From Candidatus Falkowbacteria bacterium (GTDB taxonomy: Bacteria > Patescibacteriota > Patescibacteriia > UBA11705), in NCBI GenBank assembly GCA_003518055.1, contig DOZJ01000006.1, forward strand, positions 136,912 through 200,911: a DNA stretch of 64,000 bases. The letters are read 5' to 3'. Below, in pieces: positions 1,895 through 58,803 of the stretch. Within the stretch, counting starts at the first letter, position 1; each line of letters opens with the position of its first letter. The position numbers were made by a program, and so were the translations under genes. The notes beneath the pieces were generated by a model that ran no database searches, was not told the origin of the DNA, and saw only the letters and a list, made by a program, of their open reading frames with translations.

Positions 1895-1922
1895 CTCACA
1901 TTGATATGTGAGATTTTATTTT
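1895..1922. terminator. Bidirectional rho-independent terminator between convergent genes
   Basis: Perfect hairpin CTCACAT-TGAT-ATGTGAG, with an A-run upstream and a T-run downstream. Confidence 0.5.
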
Positions 1923-2482
1923 CGGTATTGGTCGTAAATTTCTCGAATCAGCTCATCGGCTTCGGCCGGTGATTCGATGTATTGGAATTTGATGGCGGTG
2001 TTGAAGCCGGGGGCGATAAAGAAAGCCATTTCGGTGTGTTCACCGTGTTCGGTGTTGAGAATCAGGCGCGGCGTCATGCCTTGGGGTGTCTGATTGAGCT
2101 GGATGCGGGGAATAAATCCATGATCATCGGTCCAGACATTCTGAATCAAGAGATCGCAGATCACTGCGTCGCCCGGTTCGGCGTCGCCAAAGAAAGTCCA
2201 TTTCACGACCATATGTTTGCCGGTCAACTCCAAAACTTTTTTGGTGTGGGTAATCCAGCGAATGACCGGTTTCCCACTGGCAGTTTTCCCCTTTTCAACC
2301 CGGGCGTAGGGGTCATCTTCGTTTGGGATATAAAGGAAAACGCGTTTGATTGAGAATAAATTATGGATTTCCCTGCCGTTTGTTGGCGGCTGGCCGTCAA
2401 CTTCTTCGCCCGTTGGTTCAACCACAACGTCATCCATGGCACCGTTGTCTTCAAAATCATTCTGATCGGATACACCAGACAT
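1916..2482 (-). CDS. Hypothetical protein (moderately GC-enriched)
   Basis: 188-aa ORF with RBS AGGAGT 8 nt upstream of the ATG. GC is visibly higher than in neighbouring genes. No recognisable domain. Confidence 0.45.
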   Translation of the reverse strand: MSGVSDQNDFEDNGAMDDVVVEPTGEEVDGQPPTNGREIHNLFSIKRVFLYIPNEDDPYARVEKGKTASGKPVIRWITHTKKVLELTGKHMVVKWTFFGDAEPGDAVICDLLIQNVWTDDHGFIPRIQLNQTPQGMTPRLILNTEHGEHTEMAFFIAPGFNTAIKFQYIESPAEADELIREIYDQYRK

Positions 2483-2699: not shown

Positions 2700-2736
2700 A
2701 AAACCGCTCACTATTTAGGTGAGTCGGCGGGTAAGT
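2700..2736 (-). terminator. Rho-independent terminator of the GC-rich minus-strand gene
   Basis: Minus-strand reading CCGACTCAC-CTAAATA-GTGAGCGG followed by TTTTTTT. Confidence 0.5.
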
Positions 2737-2796: not shown

Positions 2797-3486
2797 CTAG
2801 CCGCGGCGCTGGACGGTCGGCTCTCGGTGGGAGTCCGCGAGGAGCGTCCGGAGGTTGACCGTGGGCGGGTTGAGCTCGCGCTGCTTCTGGTACTCCTCCT
2901 CCTCGGCGTCCTTGCGGGCGCGGAAGCAGGTGGGGCAGCAGATCGGCTCGCACTTGGCCTTCTCGCGGAGCTCGGTCGGGGTGAGGGTGTTCTGGAAGCT
3001 GCCCGGGCAGTCGTCGGCCTCGTGCACCTCGCACACGTGGGTGTGGAGAGCCTTGAACTTCAGGTTCTTGCGGCCGCCGAGCGCGATGTTGCCGCTGGCG
3101 TTGTCCTCGACGACCACCATCTTGGTGGTGGGGACGACGTTCGGCGTCTCGATCAGGTTGACGTAGCGGACGTCGCCGTGCGCCGTGGACTTCTCGTAGA
3201 CACGGACCGTGCAGACCGCGGTGCGGCCGGCGAGCAGCTTGCCGAAGAGGAAGTAGTTGATCACCAGCGTCTTGCCGGTCTTTTCCAGCAGATGGCGGGT
3301 CAGGCCGACCCACTGGAGATGCGGCGGGATCGGGGTGCCGTCGGGCAGGGTGGCGTCGGTGACGACGCGCACCGGCTGCTGATTGGGCATCAGCTCGGGG
3401 ACGCTGATCTGAACGGCGTGCTTCTCGTAGATGAGGTCGTGAGGGATGTTCTCGGGGTAGGTGTAGGGGCTCTGGAGCTCGCTCAT
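2797..3486 (-). CDS. Hypothetical Cys-rich protein in a high-GC (~65%) island
   Basis: Of three overlapping ORFs in the GC-rich block, this frame has protein-like composition, RBS GGAGGA before the ATG (MSELQSPYT...), its own terminator and a consensus promoter. C-terminal CxxxxC/CCPTC cysteine cluster. The other two frames are Ala/Arg/Gly/Leu-rich antisense artefacts. Confidence 0.55.
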   Translation of the reverse strand: MSELQSPYTYPENIPHDLIYEKHAVQISVPELMPNQQPVRVVTDATLPDGTPIPPHLQWVGLTRHLLEKTGKTLVINYFLFGKLLAGRTAVCTVRVYEKSTAHGDVRYVNLIETPNVVPTTKMVVVEDNASGNIALGGRKNLKFKALHTHVCEVHEADDCPGSFQNTLTPTELREKAKCEPICCPTCFRARKDAEEEEYQKQRELNPPTVNLRTLLADSHREPTVQRRG

Positions 3487-3564
3487 CGGATCCTCCGTAA
3501 AATGGCCCGTTTGGGCGTCATGTGGCGGCAATGCGCCGCGGGGATGGAATGTACAGTATTAAGC

Positions 3565-3593
3565 ATTATATCATATTTTTGACAAAAAGTCAA
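3565..3593 (-). promoter_or_regulatory. Sigma70-type promoter TTGACT-17-TATAAT for the GC-rich gene
   Basis: Minus-strand reading TTGACTttttgtcaaaaatatgaTATAAT. Lies directly downstream of repeat copy L. Confidence 0.5.
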
Positions 3594-3600
3594 TAGTTGG

Positions 3601-3652
3601 GGGTCGGGGGTAGGGTTTAGGGAACCATTGTGATGATTTTTGCCTAAAATAA
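3601..3652. repeat. Promoter-proximal repeat copy L (GGGTAGGGTTTAGGGA...TTGTGATGATTTTTGCCTAAAAT)
   Basis: About 50-nt near-identical copy of the sequence at 4033-4084. Each copy sits just upstream (minus sense) of a consensus promoter. Confidence 0.6.
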
Positions 3653-3653
3653 A

Positions 3654-3682
3654 ATAAAAAAATCGGCTAGATTTCTAGCCGA
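3654..3682 (-). terminator. Terminator of small membrane protein A
   Basis: Perfect hairpin CGGCTAGAAATCTAGCCG followed by a T7 run on the minus strand. Confidence 0.6.
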
Positions 3683-3692
3683 GAGGTGGGCT

Positions 3693-3962
3693 TCAGACTC
3701 GCCATTTGAGTCGATTGAATCTTGAGTGATTCGAGCGAAAGATAAAGAGTTCCCAGCTAAATACCAGCAGCGGTGGATTGATTAGCCAGATAGCTTTACT
3801 GCTGACGGCAAAGGCAATGACATCGATGACTCCGAGTAGAATTACGTTGGCCCAATAGAAGGTGAAAAAGGTGTTTTGGGTCCAGTGATAGGCGAGAGCC
3901 AGCTTCAACCAAACCACAAACAGAACTACAAGAAACAAATGCAGGCCAAGTAGAATGGTCAT
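3693..3962 (-). CDS. Small integral membrane protein A, with basic/aromatic C-terminal tail
   Basis: 89 aa, 2-3 predicted TM helices. RBS GGAGGAACC before the ATG. Consensus promoter and perfect terminator. Paralogous to the 5678..5932 product. Confidence 0.5.
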   Translation of the reverse strand: MTILLGLHLFLVVLFVVWLKLALAYHWTQNTFFTFYWANVILLGVIDVIAFAVSSKAIWLINPPLLVFSWELFIFRSNHSRFNRLKWRV

Positions 3963-4002
3963 GGTTCCTCCATCGTGGTTTAACTGTGGAATTGTATATT
4001 AT

Positions 4003-4031
4003 ATTATATCAATAATATTTTCTTTTGTCAA
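4003..4031 (-). promoter_or_regulatory. Consensus sigma70 promoter TTGACA-17-TATAAT for membrane protein A
   Basis: Minus-strand reading TTGACAaaagaaaatattattgaTATAAT. Confidence 0.55.
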
Positions 4032-4032
4032 T

Positions 4033-4084
4033 GGTAGCGGGTAGGGTTTAAGGGAGAGTTGTGATGATTTTTGGCTAAAAATTT
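4033..4084. repeat. Promoter-proximal repeat copy R
   Basis: GGGTAGGGTTTAAGGGAGAGTTGTGATGATTTTTGGCTAAAAA, a near copy of 3601-3652. Confidence 0.6.
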
Positions 4085-4099
4085 GGTGTTTTATTTACT

Positions 4100-4133
4100 C
4101 CCGTAGTGGTCGGTCGCGACCGACCACTACGGG
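4100..4133. promoter_or_regulatory. Perfect 34-bp palindrome CCCGTAGTGGTCGGTCG|CGACCGACCACTACGGG
   Basis: Exact dyad symmetry and GC-rich. Immediately upstream of the dus promoter. No flanking T-run, so it is probably not a simple terminator and may be an operator. Confidence 0.45.
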
Positions 4134-4143
4134 GATAGTTGAA

Positions 4144-4172
4144 TTGAATTTTTGGGGAAATTTGGATATAAT
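4144..4172 (+). promoter_or_regulatory. Promoter TTGAAT-17-TATAAT for dus
   Basis: TTGAATttttggggaaatttggaTATAAT. Confidence 0.45.
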
Positions 4173-4218
4173 TGTTAAATAATGAAGAATGTTCATGTAC
4201 TAAATAACAGTCGGAAGG

Positions 4219-4246
4219 TTACCCTTCGAGAACCTCAGGGTGACAA
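4219..4246. repeat. Hairpin repeat H1 (CCCTTCGAG-N-CTCAGGGTGACAA)
   Basis: Same about 28-nt imperfect-hairpin motif recurs at 4708-4737 (inside dus) and, reverse-complemented, at 49881-49910. Confidence 0.55.
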
Positions 4247-4274
4247 GAAGTAAAGGTGGTACAGAAAATGTTTT

Positions 4275-5243
4275 ATGAAAACTTTTTGGGACAAACTACC
4301 GCGGCCGTTTTTGGCCTTGGCGCCGATGGCGGGAATTTCAGATTCGGCTTTTAGACAGATGTGCTTGAAATACGGCGCTGATGTTGTTTATACTGAAATG
4401 ACGGCATTTGATGCGCTGCATTATGGCAGCGCAAAGACGCTTGAAATGTTGAAATTCAATAAACGCAAAGAGCGACCGATTGTTATTCAGCTTTTTGGTA
4501 AACGGCCGGAGACTGTTAAAAAAGCCGTGGAGATGGTTGAAACGGCCGGATTTGACGGGATTGATATTAATTTTGGCTGTCCGGCCAGAAAAGTGGTAGC
4601 GCATGGCGGCGGCATTACACTCCTGCGAGATTTGAATTTGGCGCGCGAGATGGTGCAAGCGGTCACAGAAGCGGCGACGGTTCCGGTGTCAGTTAAAACC
4701 AGAACGTCTATCCTTCGAGTGACTCAGGTTGACAAAAGGGTAACTGTGTTTGATTTTATTGATAAAATAAAAGATTTGCCGGTAAAAGCGCTCATGATTC
4801 ATGGGCGCAGTTATGAGGGTGGATTTTCTGCTCCGATTGATTTTGACGTGATTAAACAAGTAAAGGAAACATTTAACGGCGTGGTCATCGGCAATGGCGG
4901 CATCAATACGCCGGAGCAAGCGATGGAGATGTTGAATAAAACCGGTGTTGACGGTTTGGGTTTGGCGCGAGGTCTTTATGGTCGACCGTATTTGTTTCAG
5001 CAAGCCAAGGAATATTTAAATAAAGGAAAATACAAAGAAGTAACATTAAAACAAATAAAAAAAATTGCGGTTGAGCACACGGAGTTATTGGCGGAATTGA
5101 AGGGAGAGTCAGGGATGTTTGAAATTCGGAAACATTTGTTGTGGTATTTCCGAGGGTTTCCAAATGCAGCGGAATGGCGGCAAAAGTTGGTCCGGGTGGA
5201 AAGTGTGGATGAGGTGGAGGGAATATTAAAAACGATGGTGTAA
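4275..5243 (+). CDS. dus: tRNA-dihydrouridine synthase (Dus family)
   Basis: LAPMAGISD...QLFG...GFDGIDINFGCP...IHGRS motifs of FMN-dependent Dus enzymes. 322 aa. Contains in-frame hairpin-repeat copy H2. Confidence 0.8.
   Translation: MKTFWDKLPRPFLALAPMAGISDSAFRQMCLKYGADVVYTEMTAFDALHYGSAKTLEMLKFNKRKERPIVIQLFGKRPETVKKAVEMVETAGFDGIDINFGCPARKVVAHGGGITLLRDLNLAREMVQAVTEAATVPVSVKTRTSILRVTQVDKRVTVFDFIDKIKDLPVKALMIHGRSYEGGFSAPIDFDVIKQVKETFNGVVIGNGGINTPEQAMEMLNKTGVDGLGLARGLYGRPYLFQQAKEYLNKGKYKEVTLKQIKKIAVEHTELLAELKGESGMFEIRKHLLWYFRGFPNAAEWRQKLVRVESVDEVEGILKTMV
4708..4737. repeat. Hairpin repeat H2 inside the dus coding region
   Basis: ATCCTTCGAGTGACTCAGGTTGACAAAAG. Matches H1 and H3. Sits in frame (encodes ...SILRVTQVDKR...). 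Confidence 0.45.
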
Positions 5244-5352
5244 CTGGAATTACAAAAGTTTGGCGGGTAGGTTGGTTTTACAAAAGGACACAATAACCGC
5301 TGAAGTGTGATAGTTGGTGATTTTTACAAAAATTTGGCGGGGTAACTGGAAC

Positions 5353-5490
5353 TACCCACCTACGCTCTTACTTCCACCTACGCATAACGCTTATGCCTTC
5401 GCTAAAGCTATGGCATACAGGTCGGTGGACAGGGCGTAGAGCTACGGCGCCTGCCTGCCGGGAGGCAGGGGCGCGGCGGAAGTAACGAGG
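5353..5490. repeat. GC-rich dispersed repeat R1 (CCCACCTACGC / GCTAAAGC / CGGCGGGCAGG family)
   Basis: Shares the CCCACCTACG, GCTAAAGC and CCTGCCGGGAGGCAGG/CGGCGGGCAGGC cores with copies at 9570-9690, 38322-38440 and 49880-50021. Here it is frameshifted and non-coding. Confidence 0.6.
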
Positions 5491-5677: not shown

Positions 5678-5932
5678 TCAGCGGATCAGATTTCTTATCC
5701 ATCGGCCGAAATAGCGGATGATTTCCCAAAGCGAACGAAAGAACAATTCTATAAACCAGAATACCACACGAAACGGCAACAAGGCAACAAAGACAAATGA
5801 ATTGCTGGCATGCTTCTTGATTTTTTTCCAGTTTTTCTCGCCCATGATCGGACGAAAGATAAAGGCGACGCCGACCAGAATCAGGTAGTAGGCGATAATA
5901 CGCCAAGCAAGAAACTGCCATTCGTTGGTCAT
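5678..5932 (-). CDS. Small integral membrane protein B (paralog of A)
   Basis: Start MTNEWQ with RBS GGAGGAACC. TM helices and a basic aromatic C-terminal tail (WEIIRYFGRWIRNLIR). Alignable with protein A (TQNTFFTFYWANVILLGV versus TNEWQFLAWRIIAYYLILVGV). Confidence 0.5.
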   Translation of the reverse strand: MTNEWQFLAWRIIAYYLILVGVAFIFRPIMGEKNWKKIKKHASNSFVFVALLPFRVVFWFIELFFRSLWEIIRYFGRWIRNLIR

Positions 5933-9030: not shown

Positions 9031-10245
9031 ATGAAAATCGGCATTGATGCCTCGCGGGCGAATAAGCCCATAAAGACCGGCGTGGAGTGGTATTCATACC
9101 ATATAATTCAAGAACTCAAAAAAATTGACAGCGACAATCAATATTTTTTGTATACCAACACGCCGCTTGATATGGGGTTGGAGAAGTGTCCGGGGAATTT
9201 CAAAGAGGTGTGGCTCAAATGGCCGCTTCGCTATATGTGGACTTTGATTCGGCTCAGCTGTGAAATAAAATTCGGGAAAACCAAACCGGATTTGTTGTTT
9301 GTGCCGGCTCATACGCTGCCGCTGGTTAATCCATCCAAATCGGTGGTAACCATTCATGACATCGGATATGAACGCTTTCCGGATTTGTACAAATGGCCGC
9401 AAAGATTTTATCACAAATGGAGCTCAAGATTTGTAAAAAAACACGCGACAAAAATTTTGACCGTGTCGGAATTTTCCAAAAAAGAAATAATGGAAGTGTA
9501 TGGCGTGCCGGAGGAAAAAATCGCGGTGGTTTATAATGGGTATGATAAAGATGTATATGGGTTAAGGGGGCGTGAGGGGGCTGAAGAGGGTGGGGTTACG
9601 AAATTACCCACCTACGCTGATGCTCCGGCGGGCAGGCAAAACATTACCCGCCTACGCATGGGCTACGGCGGGCAGGCAAAAAGTTACGAAAACAAGACTG
9701 CTGTAAATGGGCAGTATATGATGTTCGTCGGCCGGTTGGAGGCGAAGAAAAATATTGAGCGTCTGCTTGACGCGTTTGTGACTTTCAAGGCCAAAAATCC
9801 TGAGGATAAACACAAACTGGTGTTGGTTGGCAAGCCAAGGCCGGAGTTTCAGCAAAAGATGATGCGGCTCGCCCTTGAAAATAAAGATAATGATATTATT
9901 CATTTTGAATATTTGAAGGCGGCCGAGGTGGCGTCGTTGTTGCATCGGGCGGATTTGTTTGTGTTTCCGTCGTTGTATGAAGGTTTTGGCATTCCGGTGC
10001 TGGAAGCCATGGCCTGCGGCTGTCCGGTGATTTGCGCCAATACGACATCTTTGCCTGAAGTCGCGGGTGAAGCCGCGATTATGTTTGATCCCGAACGGGT
10101 GGATTTGATCGTAAAGGCGATGGAAACCGTGCTTTTTAATCCCACCGTTGCGGTGGCGTTGAAGGAAAAAGGTTTGGAGCGCGTCAAGGCGTTTTCATGG
10201 AATAAAGCAGCGAGGGAGATAAAGGAGATTATGGAAAAAATATGA
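9031..10245 (+). CDS. Glycosyltransferase family 4, carrying an in-frame repeat insertion
   Basis: C-terminal EGFGIPVLEAMACGCPVI...E GT-B retaining-GT motif. A low-complexity insert (GLRGREGAEEGGVTKLPTYADAPAGRQ...GYGGQAK) is encoded by repeat R2. Confidence 0.8.
   Translation: MKIGIDASRANKPIKTGVEWYSYHIIQELKKIDSDNQYFLYTNTPLDMGLEKCPGNFKEVWLKWPLRYMWTLIRLSCEIKFGKTKPDLLFVPAHTLPLVNPSKSVVTIHDIGYERFPDLYKWPQRFYHKWSSRFVKKHATKILTVSEFSKKEIMEVYGVPEEKIAVVYNGYDKDVYGLRGREGAEEGGVTKLPTYADAPAGRQNITRLRMGYGGQAKSYENKTAVNGQYMMFVGRLEAKKNIERLLDAFVTFKAKNPEDKHKLVLVGKPRPEFQQKMMRLALENKDNDIIHFEYLKAAEVASLLHRADLFVFPSLYEGFGIPVLEAMACGCPVICANTTSLPEVAGEAAIMFDPERVDLIVKAMETVLFNPTVAVALKEKGLERVKAFSWNKAAREIKEIMEKI
9570..9690. repeat. 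GC-rich dispersed repeat R2 (tandem half-units) in frame within the GT4 gene
   Basis: TTACCCACCTACGC...CCGGCGGGCAGGCAAAA occurs twice in tandem, preceded by a G-rich GGGGGCGTGAGGGGGCTGAAGAGGGTGGGG leader. Confidence 0.6.
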
Positions 10246-53059: not shown

Positions 53060-53142
53060 TAAATAAAACCACCGAGTTGTAACCCAGGTTTATTTGTATC
53101 CGATGGAGGGTAGAGTAGCCAGGGCAGCTCGACAAAATGTGT

Positions 53143-53877
53143 ATGGAGTTATTTCTCCTTCCGTCAAAAATTGAATATAAAAAAGGTGAAAAACCGAATG
53201 AAGCGGTGTTGGAAGTAGAGCCGTTGTATTTCGGATATGGTACCACCATGGCGAACGCGTTGCGTCGAGTTTTGATGTCATCATTGCCGGGAGCGGCGGT
53301 GACAGCGGTGAAAATCAAGGGTGTAGATCAAGAATTTTCAGCGATAGAAAACGTAAAAGAAGATGCTTTGAATATAATTTTAAATTTAAAAAAATTAGCG
53401 GTAAAAGTCCACAGCGATGAACCGATAAAACTCAAGCTAAAAGTAAAGGGTGCAAAGACAGTGACGGCCGACGACATTGAGAAGAATAGCGATGTGGAAA
53501 TTATCAATACTGATTTGGAAATTTTGACTTTGACGGATAAAAAGGGCGAAATTGACATGGAAATTACAGTGGAAAAAGGCAGAGGATATATTCCGGTTGA
53601 GGAAAGAAGCCGCGATGATTTGGAAATCGGGACGATGATGGTTGACTCGGTTTTTTCTCCGGTAAGAAATGTGGGATATCAGGTGGAAAATGTTCGTGTC
53701 GGCGATATTACGGATTATGATAAATTGACCATGAATATTGAGACTGATGGCACGCTCACTCCGGAAGAAGCGGTATCCCAAGCGACTAAAATTTTAATAG
53801 ATCACTTTTCTTTGTTGCAGGGAGACAAAAAAAATGTCGACTTGAACGATGAAGAAGAGCCATCGGCCGCCGAATAA
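53143..53877 (+). CDS. rpoA: DNA-directed RNA polymerase alpha subunit, N-terminal domain only (no alphaCTD)
   Basis: NTD dimerisation/assembly domain motifs (GYGTTMANALRRVLMSSLPGAAVT). ORF ends after about 245 aa. rplQ starts 90 nt later, leaving no room for an about 80-aa alphaCTD. Confidence 0.8.
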   Translation: MELFLLPSKIEYKKGEKPNEAVLEVEPLYFGYGTTMANALRRVLMSSLPGAAVTAVKIKGVDQEFSAIENVKEDALNIILNLKKLAVKVHSDEPIKLKLKVKGAKTVTADDIEKNSDVEIINTDLEILTLTDKKGEIDMEITVEKGRGYIPVEERSRDDLEIGTMMVDSVFSPVRNVGYQVENVRVGDITDYDKLTMNIETDGTLTPEEAVSQATKILIDHFSLLQGDKKNVDLNDEEEPSAAE

Positions 53878-58615: not shown

Positions 58616-58803
58616 TTGACGAAATATTTATCTTTTGCTAAAATATAAATACAAATTAATTCCGCAGACTGCAAGTGTCGATAGACTTAAATATCTTGCA
58701 TAGGAACGAATAAGAGCTTACGGTCTTTGAGCCGTTAGTTTTTAGAAGATAAGTCTGCGGGGAACCGGAGATATTTTTTTACTAATTATTCATTTTTAAC
58801 AAT
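58616..58803 (+). promoter_or_regulatory. rplJ promoter (TTGACG-17-TAAAAT) and structured 5' leader (L10-leader-like autoregulatory element)
   Basis: About 150-nt untranslated leader enclosed by a long-range pairing CCGCAGAC (58662-58669) / GTCTGCGG (58753-58760), consistent with an L10(L12)4-binding leader. Confidence 0.45.

Follow-up and report, generated by a model that had tools for sequence, protein, structure and literature searches.

A direct repeat beside two strong promoters in a Candidatus Falkowbacteria genome, most likely a local duplication that marks an orphan-gene insertion

The stretch of DNA analysed here (64 kb, called the window) comes from a groundwater Candidatus Falkowbacteria bacterium, a member of the candidate phyla radiation (CPR), and contains a short direct repeat whose two copies, R1 and R2, bracket a 383-bp segment with a gene for an orphan protein of 89 amino acids (aa). 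All of this lies between two genes that are read back to back, a GC-rich gene of 229 aa on the minus strand and dus, encoding tRNA-dihydrouridine synthase, on the plus strand. We consider it probable that the repeat is the duplication footprint of a moron-like cassette that was inserted into the spacer between the divergent promoters, and that the promoters next to the repeat are autonomous. The feature would then most likely be a real but ordinary local duplication that marks the insertion of an orphan gene. As a regulatory element it would have little importance, being a duplication scar beside ordinary strong sigma-70-type promoters; it would rather mark how a streamlined CPR genome gained an orphan gene, namely as a ready-made cassette, partly copied from a resident module, between divergent promoters. 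The features concerned are the following:

3602-3649, plus strand: R1, repeat copy with block A (GGGTAGGGTTTA) and block B (TTGTGATGATTTTTGCCTAAAA), directly abutting the promoter of the GC-rich gene; positional orthologue of the single spacer of the relatives
4033-4080, plus strand: R2, repeat copy upstream of the promoter of the 89-aa gene, with no counterpart in the relatives
5265-5337, plus strand: R3, probable degenerate copy just after the dus stop codon
3593-3565, minus strand: P1, TTGACT-17-TATAAT with TG before the -10 box, promoter of the GC-rich gene
4031-4003, minus strand: P2, TTGACA-17-TATAAT (12/12 match) with TG before the -10 box, promoter of the 89-aa gene
3650-4032, minus strand: unique segment between R1 and R2 (383 bp), the presumed inserted cassette, extending from the -35 box through ribosome binding site (RBS) and open reading frame (ORF) to the terminator T-tract
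3693-3962, minus strand: protein A, hydrophobic orphan ORF of 89 aa with its own promoter P2
3682-3663, minus strand: intrinsic terminator of the 89-aa gene (-13.2 kcal/mol, z -5.1)
2797-3486, minus strand: GC-rich gene of 229 aa (GC 0.67; GC at third codon positions, GC3, 0.96), driven by P1; orphan family with a Cys-rich C-terminus
4275-5243, plus strand: dus, anchor gene of the synteny comparison
4143-4172, plus strand: present-day dus promoter, TTGAAT-17-TATAAT, also found in the closest relative

R1 and R2 are in direct orientation and identical at 40 of 48 positions (83%). Blocks A and B (the latter, as shared by both copies, also written TTGTGATGATTTTTGSCTAAAA) were both far above shuffle expectation, and an nhmmer profile built from the two copies found them with E-values of 2e-14 and 4e-13; the next match in the 64-kb window was the infA-rpmJ spacer with an E-value of 0.39. 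The DNA searched for the repeat comprised the window and 6 kb beyond its start, approximately 70 kb of one genome, and apart from the degenerate R3 no further convincing copy was present in it. The first-pass annotation, made from the letters of the window, had described two near-identical copies and, in addition, degenerate versions at 1-40 and 5270-5340. The two copies proved real, the resemblance at 1-40 was at chance level and the other site was borne out in part: R3 has both blocks, unchanged in order and strand but 26 nt further apart, and the two-block pattern had 3 matches versus 0.01 expected, but this pattern was designed after the site had been seen, and block B of R3 alone scored within the background of coding regions. 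R3 lies in approximately 200 nt of extra DNA that the closest relative is without, and the two strong copies and the degenerate one all fall within 1.8 kb. A third copy picked by eye at 2726-2765 was rejected as chance (the orthologous stretch of the closest relative bears no resemblance to it), as were the regions upstream of the promoters of the 188- and 84-aa genes described below. An exact scan for block B gave 2 loci in genome_contigs, 13 in metagenome_contigs and 0 in viral_contigs, collections that do not include the organism's own contigs; the hits were at chance level and none was accompanied by block A. Neither inverted repeats nor palindromes nor internal direct-repeat symmetry were found within the repeat blocks.

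Each copy lies, in the minus-strand sense, immediately upstream of a consensus promoter, and downstream of both P1 and P2 follow GGAGGA and an ATG; the promoters and the GGAGGA agree with the first-pass annotation. The repeat is separated from the -35 box by 8 nt at P1 and 1 nt at P2, which the alignment shows as an indel of 6 nt. The 25 nt upstream of the -35 box have an A+T content of 40% (P1) and 44% (P2) and are G-rich on the plus strand. The association of the repeat with promoters that had been proposed thus holds for R1 and R2 in the approximately 70 kb searched, but R3 adjoins no minus-strand promoter, and the register of R1 and R2 differs. As a separate observation, the -35 region of P1 (3579-3593) lies in a small palindrome, TTGAC-N5-GTCAA, which is kept in the form TTGA-N7/8-TCAA in two relatives (L022, 9789-9803; L025, 2917-2932) and may represent an operator that overlaps the -35 box.

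Between R1 and R2, the unique segment is bounded exactly by the -35 hexamer of P2 on one side and the T-tract of the terminator on the other. The terminator noted in the first-pass annotation was recovered with the energy given above, and the gene has a GC content of 0.45. In a word-indexed search of 5.8 billion proteins the 89-aa protein matched its identical sequence alone, NCBI hypothetical protein DF272_05765, which is present on 7 contigs from several samples. Five loci fetched from contigs with this protein did not differ from the window at any position (100% identity), and none of the contigs carrying the locus had an empty-site allele. Within the window nothing similar to the segment was found in any frame, including the dus, GC-rich, 188-aa, 239-aa and methyltransferase genes, and inspection of its ends at 3650 and 4032 revealed no terminal inverted repeats. 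A resemblance was found, however, between the beginning of the 89-aa gene and that of a second small gene, gene B, on the other side of dus:

5678-5932, minus strand: protein B, membrane protein of 84 aa, conserved in the closest relative at 64% identity
5958-5986, minus strand: promoter of gene B (P84), TTGACA-17-TAAAAT, the likely source module for P2, RBS and start of the 89-aa gene

The module comprising P2, the 5' untranslated region (UTR) and the start of the 89-aa gene reached a local score of 43 against the P84 module, compared with 14-25 for unrelated consensus promoters and 35 for the orthologous pair P84 and P86, and the 16-mer GGAGGAACCATGACCA occurs in the window at these two modules alone. 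Judged by these letters, it looks as if P2, RBS and start of the 89-aa gene were copied from the module of the 84-aa gene. Because of this copied promoter-5' UTR-start module, the cassette looks like a mosaic: its promoter-RBS module would come from a resident gene, ORF and terminator would be new, and the spacer would be a duplicate of the local one. The first-pass annotation had taken proteins A and B for paralogues; their promoter-RBS-start modules are indeed alike, and gene B has the promoter and terminator ascribed to it, but homology of the proteins was not detectable (BLASTP E-value 2.6; nothing by tblastn). Both proteins have at least two hydrophobic segments. In the closest relative the terminator hairpin of gene B is kept with altered bases in the stem. 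No Pfam, PHROG, PADLOC or NCBIfam family was assigned to the 89-, 84-, 229- and 188-aa proteins or their relatives. The claim that the small genes are self-contained units of promoter, ORF and terminator was confirmed and extends to four genes, those of 89, 229, 188 and 84 aa, each of which has an autonomous promoter that matches the consensus at 11-12 of 12 positions and a factor-independent terminator.

Syntenic loci of relatives were fetched through Dus homologues. The closest relative was L022 (Dus 76% identical), and a clade of three loci, L025, L027 and L028, had Dus proteins of 64-65% identity. In L022 the order is methyltransferase, a 168-aa gene, a GC-rich gene of 261 aa, its promoter, a spacer of approximately 50 nt, the dus promoter, dus and an 86-aa gene that is 64% identical to the 84-aa gene of the window; an 89-aa cassette, a second spacer and the 34-bp palindrome described below are absent. 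In the L025 clade a GC-rich gene of 192 aa has its -35 box only 9 nt from that of the dus promoter, and again there is neither an 89-aa cassette nor a second spacer copy. Both outgroups share the order GC-rich gene, its promoter, one spacer, dus promoter and dus, and the repeat pattern is absent from the loci of all relatives; in another locus, L024, the methyltransferase directly abuts dus. Since both outgroups have a single spacer, R2 together with 3650-4032 is most parsimoniously explained as an insertion in the lineage of the window. Conservation drops at the edge of the promoter: a 51-nt stretch with P1 (3548-3598) is identical to the orthologous L022 promoter at 44 of 51 positions, the 51 nt upstream of it, corresponding to R1, at only 28 of 51. 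Because the repeat decayed while the core promoter remained almost unchanged, R1 is apparently not functionally required by P1. In L025 the dus promoter (TTGTAA-17-TATATT with TTGGCTAAAATAAGATA) is placed where block B (TTGCCTAAAATAAAATA) sits in R1, whose counterpart on the plus strand reads TTGTGA-16-TAAAAT and contains TTGCCTAAAATAAAATA; this likeness at the same position suggests that block B preserves, within the repeat, the relic of an older dus promoter.

The repeat, its absence from the relatives, the drop in conservation and the likeness of the promoter modules are observations; the course of events that we propose from them, with an insertion in place of a loss, a mode of integration and a repeat without function, is inferred. 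R1, R2 and the degenerate R3 would be lineage-specific local duplicates of the spacer that separates the divergent promoters of the GC-rich gene and dus, R1 being the ancestral spacer that abuts the orthologous, highly conserved P1. R2 would have formed when a self-contained expression cassette of 383 bp, made up of -35 box, extended -10 box, RBS, the 89-aa orphan ORF and terminator, entered that spacer. A spacer copy on each side could have been left by single-crossover integration of a small circle bearing the spacer or by duplication-insertion. P1 and P2 would act through their own consensus -35 and extended -10 elements, and the repeat would be a structural footprint without a conserved regulatory role, containing at most the relic of the older dus promoter in block B.

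Several points weigh against this course of events. The eight mismatches between R1 and R2 are clustered, with five in an 8-nt centre, which leaves perfect blocks of 12 and 15 nt; a bipartite site for a DNA-binding protein, and not one small indel, could be behind this pattern. Both copies adjoin strong promoters, which a pure footprint explains by insertion geometry alone. A loss of the cassette in the two outgroup lineages by recombination between R1 and R2 is less parsimonious but possible. The likeness of block B to the dus promoters, including the present one, and to the spacers of the relatives has p-values of 0.01-0.02 versus shuffles and falls within the tile background; homology is suggestive at most and was not accepted. 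Finally, the searchable DNA amounts to approximately 70 kb of one genome, and additional copies may exist elsewhere in it. Two further features enter into the weighing of the alternatives:

4100-4133, no strand assigned: perfect palindrome of 34 bp (17-nt arms, loop-free) between R2 and the dus promoter
53137-53877: RpoA, 246 aa, matching PF01000 and PF01193 alone (N-terminal dimerisation and insert domains)

The least unlikely alternative, but still an unlikely one, is a shared operator or activator site, in which a transcription factor bound to blocks A and B would co-regulate the GC-rich and the 89-aa gene. Perfect conservation of two blocks, of 12 nt and of 15+6 nt, around a variable centre and the position of both repeat copies immediately upstream of strong promoters would suit such a factor, but the register to the -35 box differs by 6 nt, approximately half a helical turn, the blocks are without palindromic or direct-repeat symmetry, and R3 adjoins no promoter at all. 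Moreover, L022 has not kept the repeat (28/51), and the L025 clade, with its 9 nt between the -35 boxes, lacks it altogether. An activator-binding site, as the first-pass annotation had suggested among other functions, is not supported as a conserved element by the same comparison. Further down in probability we place an active att-like recombination site at which small cassettes are captured or excised, the flanks of dus being a cassette hot spot. The copies are only 83% identical and lack an inverted-repeat core, no integrase or recombinase was found among the Pfam-annotated genes of the 10 kb on either side, and all 7 contigs of the locus, from different samples, are 100% identical without an empty-site allele; all this speaks against recombination at the site, although the direct repeats bracket exactly one self-contained cassette, dus has a third copy on its far side, further insertions confined to the lineage are concentrated at the locus (the 34-bp palindrome and a TACCCACCTACGC element), and the locus is variable, with dus at 88-90% and mreB at 100% in the L025 clade. 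In that clade the dus locus is a recombination or divergence hot spot, because mreB and a 299-aa gene are approximately 100% identical (98-99% identical codons), whereas dus and the GC-rich gene have diverged to 83-90% at the protein level. In its widest form, to which the same low probability applies, the sites flanking dus would be a capture hot spot for autonomous modules built from recycled promoter modules, exchanged at att-like R1, R2 and R3 and hosting a fast-evolving, Zn-ribbon-like, GC-saturated orphan gene; a P84-type module would have been reused for the 89-aa gene and a P_GC-type module for a GC-rich 76-aa gene in L025.

Less probable again is a plus-strand promoter or small RNA, with R1 as the origin of an antisense transcript that runs across the 89-aa gene, after the manner of type I toxin-antitoxin pairs. 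The plus strand of R1 does contain a weak promoter-like site, TTGTGA-16-TAAAAT (9/12 match), which points into the 3' end of the 89-aa gene, and block B is similar to the promoter that dus has in the L025 clade, but R2 and R3 have no usable -10 box, and gene B has no equivalent site. At the gathering threshold Rfam matched only an L10 leader at 58644 and nothing on the repeat; the fold z-scores of the repeat were -0.9 to +1.7 over both strands, no better than shuffles, neither a tRNA nor a protein-family signal was found on it, and the small RNA of the first-pass annotation is not supported. Type I toxins are small, usually below 60 aa, and single-pass hydrophobic proteins. Proteins of 89 and 84 aa with at least two hydrophobic segments are atypical for them, and in the word-indexed search the 89-aa protein had no homologue by which conservation could be judged. 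The earlier comparison with type I toxins and holins was therefore not upheld: neither protein has a family match (PHROG and Pfam included for the holins), gene B is a conserved syntenic chromosomal gene, and no lysis or phage genes lie in the vicinity, the neighbours being dus, dnaJ and mreB. The least credible explanation is an UP element, a G-quadruplex (G4) or an insulator that boosts or shields the adjacent promoter. UP elements are A/T-rich, lie at about -40 to -60 and contact the C-terminal domain of the RNA polymerase alpha subunit (alpha-CTD). Like them, the repeat directly precedes the -35 hexamer of a strong promoter, but it is G/C-rich (40-44% A+T) and in variable register, and an alpha-CTD was not found in RpoA by Pfam, in agreement with the first-pass annotation; the UP-element part is effectively refuted. 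The gene rplQ directly follows rpoA, and searches of the literature for the alpha-CTD in Patescibacteria and for Falkowbacteria turned up nothing relevant. A canonical G4 motif is present in R1 (3599-3622), and the plus strand is enriched in such motifs (6 versus 1.0 expected), but with just three G3 runs R2 falls short of a canonical motif, and the G-rich block is missing in the relatives.

Among known systems, the 89-aa cassette resembles most closely the morons of phages, which have a promoter and a terminator of their own, a GC content unlike that of their neighbours and are extra DNA compared with related genomes (PMC3594210). Like these, each unit described here has its own sigma-70-type promoter and factor-independent terminator and lies between conserved syntenic genes, and the 89-aa cassette with R2 is present in one genome and missing in L022 and the L025 clade. 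A strongly deviant GC content (0.67 versus approximately 0.43) is found in the neighbouring GC-rich cassette, but the 89-aa cassette has a normal one and the GC-rich cassette is old, syntenic across the relatives and no recent addition. Unlike morons, the units reside in a housekeeping stretch of a CPR chromosome (dnaJ, dus, mreB) and not in a prophage, and block B had no match in viral contigs; the flanking direct repeats of 48 bp are outside the definition of morons. With Campbell-type integration and duplication of an att site the locus shares an insert bounded by direct repeats of a sequence that is single in the empty site of the relatives, but no recombinase gene is nearby, the insert has just 383 bp and the repeats are only 83% identical, so that either the insertion did not occur recently or the two copies decayed afterwards. 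Integron cassettes are usually promoterless and read from a common Pc promoter, and their attC site, an imperfect palindrome, folds into a hairpin. Single-ORF units of approximately 0.4-0.8 kb in one orientation, with a recurring short sequence between them and orphan proteins, are common to both systems; here, however, intI is missing, as is any integrase within 10 kb, there is no attC-like imperfect palindrome or hairpin, and each cassette has its own promoter and terminator, and an integron attC site was rejected. A miniature inverted-repeat transposable element or an element of the insertion-sequence type was rejected as well, there being no terminal inverted repeats and no dispersed copies in the 70 kb.

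The GC-rich gene next to the repeat is more surprising than the repeat itself. It is accompanied by a normal-GC paralogue:

2707-2723, minus strand: terminator of the GC-rich gene
1916-2482, minus strand: 188-aa gene of normal GC content, paralogous to the N-terminal domain of the GC-rich protein (E-value 9e-9), with promoter at 2580-2551 and terminator at 1912-1895

In L022 the 168-aa gene is 50% identical to this 188-aa gene. GC-rich genes occupy the same slot in L022 (8911-9696, minus strand), L025 (2221-2799, minus strand) and L027 and L028 (both 4247-4825, minus strand). The L022 homologue has a GC3 of 0.85 and a protein identity of 22% (E-value 4e-12) and shares the motif HTHxC...CPTCFR; the genes of the L025 clade have a GC3 of 0.86-0.89. 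In these genomes, which have 39-43% GC, the gene stands between an AT-rich native promoter and terminator. The first-pass annotation had P1 drive a foreign gene; P1 does lie upstream of the 229-aa gene, but with a homologue in the same slot of L022 the gene is apparently not a recent foreign arrival. Its high GC content appears to be maintained, not recently imported, because GC3 stays at 0.85-0.96 in genomes of 39-43% GC across deep divergence. In the word-indexed search the 229-aa protein again matched the identical sequence alone, and an exhaustive HMMER search of 1.84 billion representatives returned only the query itself and the L022 homologue. An AlphaFold model based on a three-sequence alignment was unusable (mean predicted local distance difference test score, pLDDT, 39.9). 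By inspection, the GC-rich gene has a short hairpin immediately 5' of its RBS in the window (3495-3520), in L022 (9716-9728) and in L025 (approximately 2812-2832). Its stems differ among the three genomes (GCCCAAACGGGC, GCCCAAAGTGGGC and GGCGCTCAAGTAGCGC), and the hairpin may represent a structure conserved in the 5' UTR.

In the L025 clade a GC-rich membrane gene of 76-77 aa (GC3 0.73-0.78) follows dus (L025, 4005-4235; L027, 6020-6250; L028, 6052-6285; all minus strand) and occupies the slot of the normal-GC 84-aa gene of the window; its promoter resembles the type found at the GC-rich gene, with scores of 30-35. The gene order of the locus in the window is dnaJ (126-1223), methyltransferase (1325-1831), the four minus-strand single-gene units interleaved with dus, the 239-aa gene and mreB. 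The 34-bp palindrome at 4100-4133 has a folding energy of -31 kcal/mol (z -7.6), is unique in the window and absent in L022, and one short public contig of the locus breaks inside it.

The GC skew of the plus strand is strongly positive (0.13-0.36) in every 1-kb bin of the window, and the six canonical G4 motifs have no counterpart on the minus strand; G-rich intergenic tandem repeats at 1837-1879 are among them. A second family of short repeats, TACCCRCCTACGC and related sequences, is found at 5340-5470 and 9555-9690 (3 matches versus 0.01 expected). Its copies are preceded by G-rich tracts, and one of them lies after dus. A two-copy tandem array of 40-nt units is set in frame in the ORF of a GT4 glycosyltransferase (9031-10245), which is approximately 28 aa longer than in relatives. 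In the leader of dus a stretch at 4218-4250 (acccttcgagaacctcagggtgacaagaag) resembles a coding stretch of the same gene at 4711-4743 (atccttcgagtgactcaggttgacaaaagg; approximately 24/30 by manual count), which could be a feedback element or chance, and TCAGGGTGACAA from this leader is also found in the dus leader of L022.

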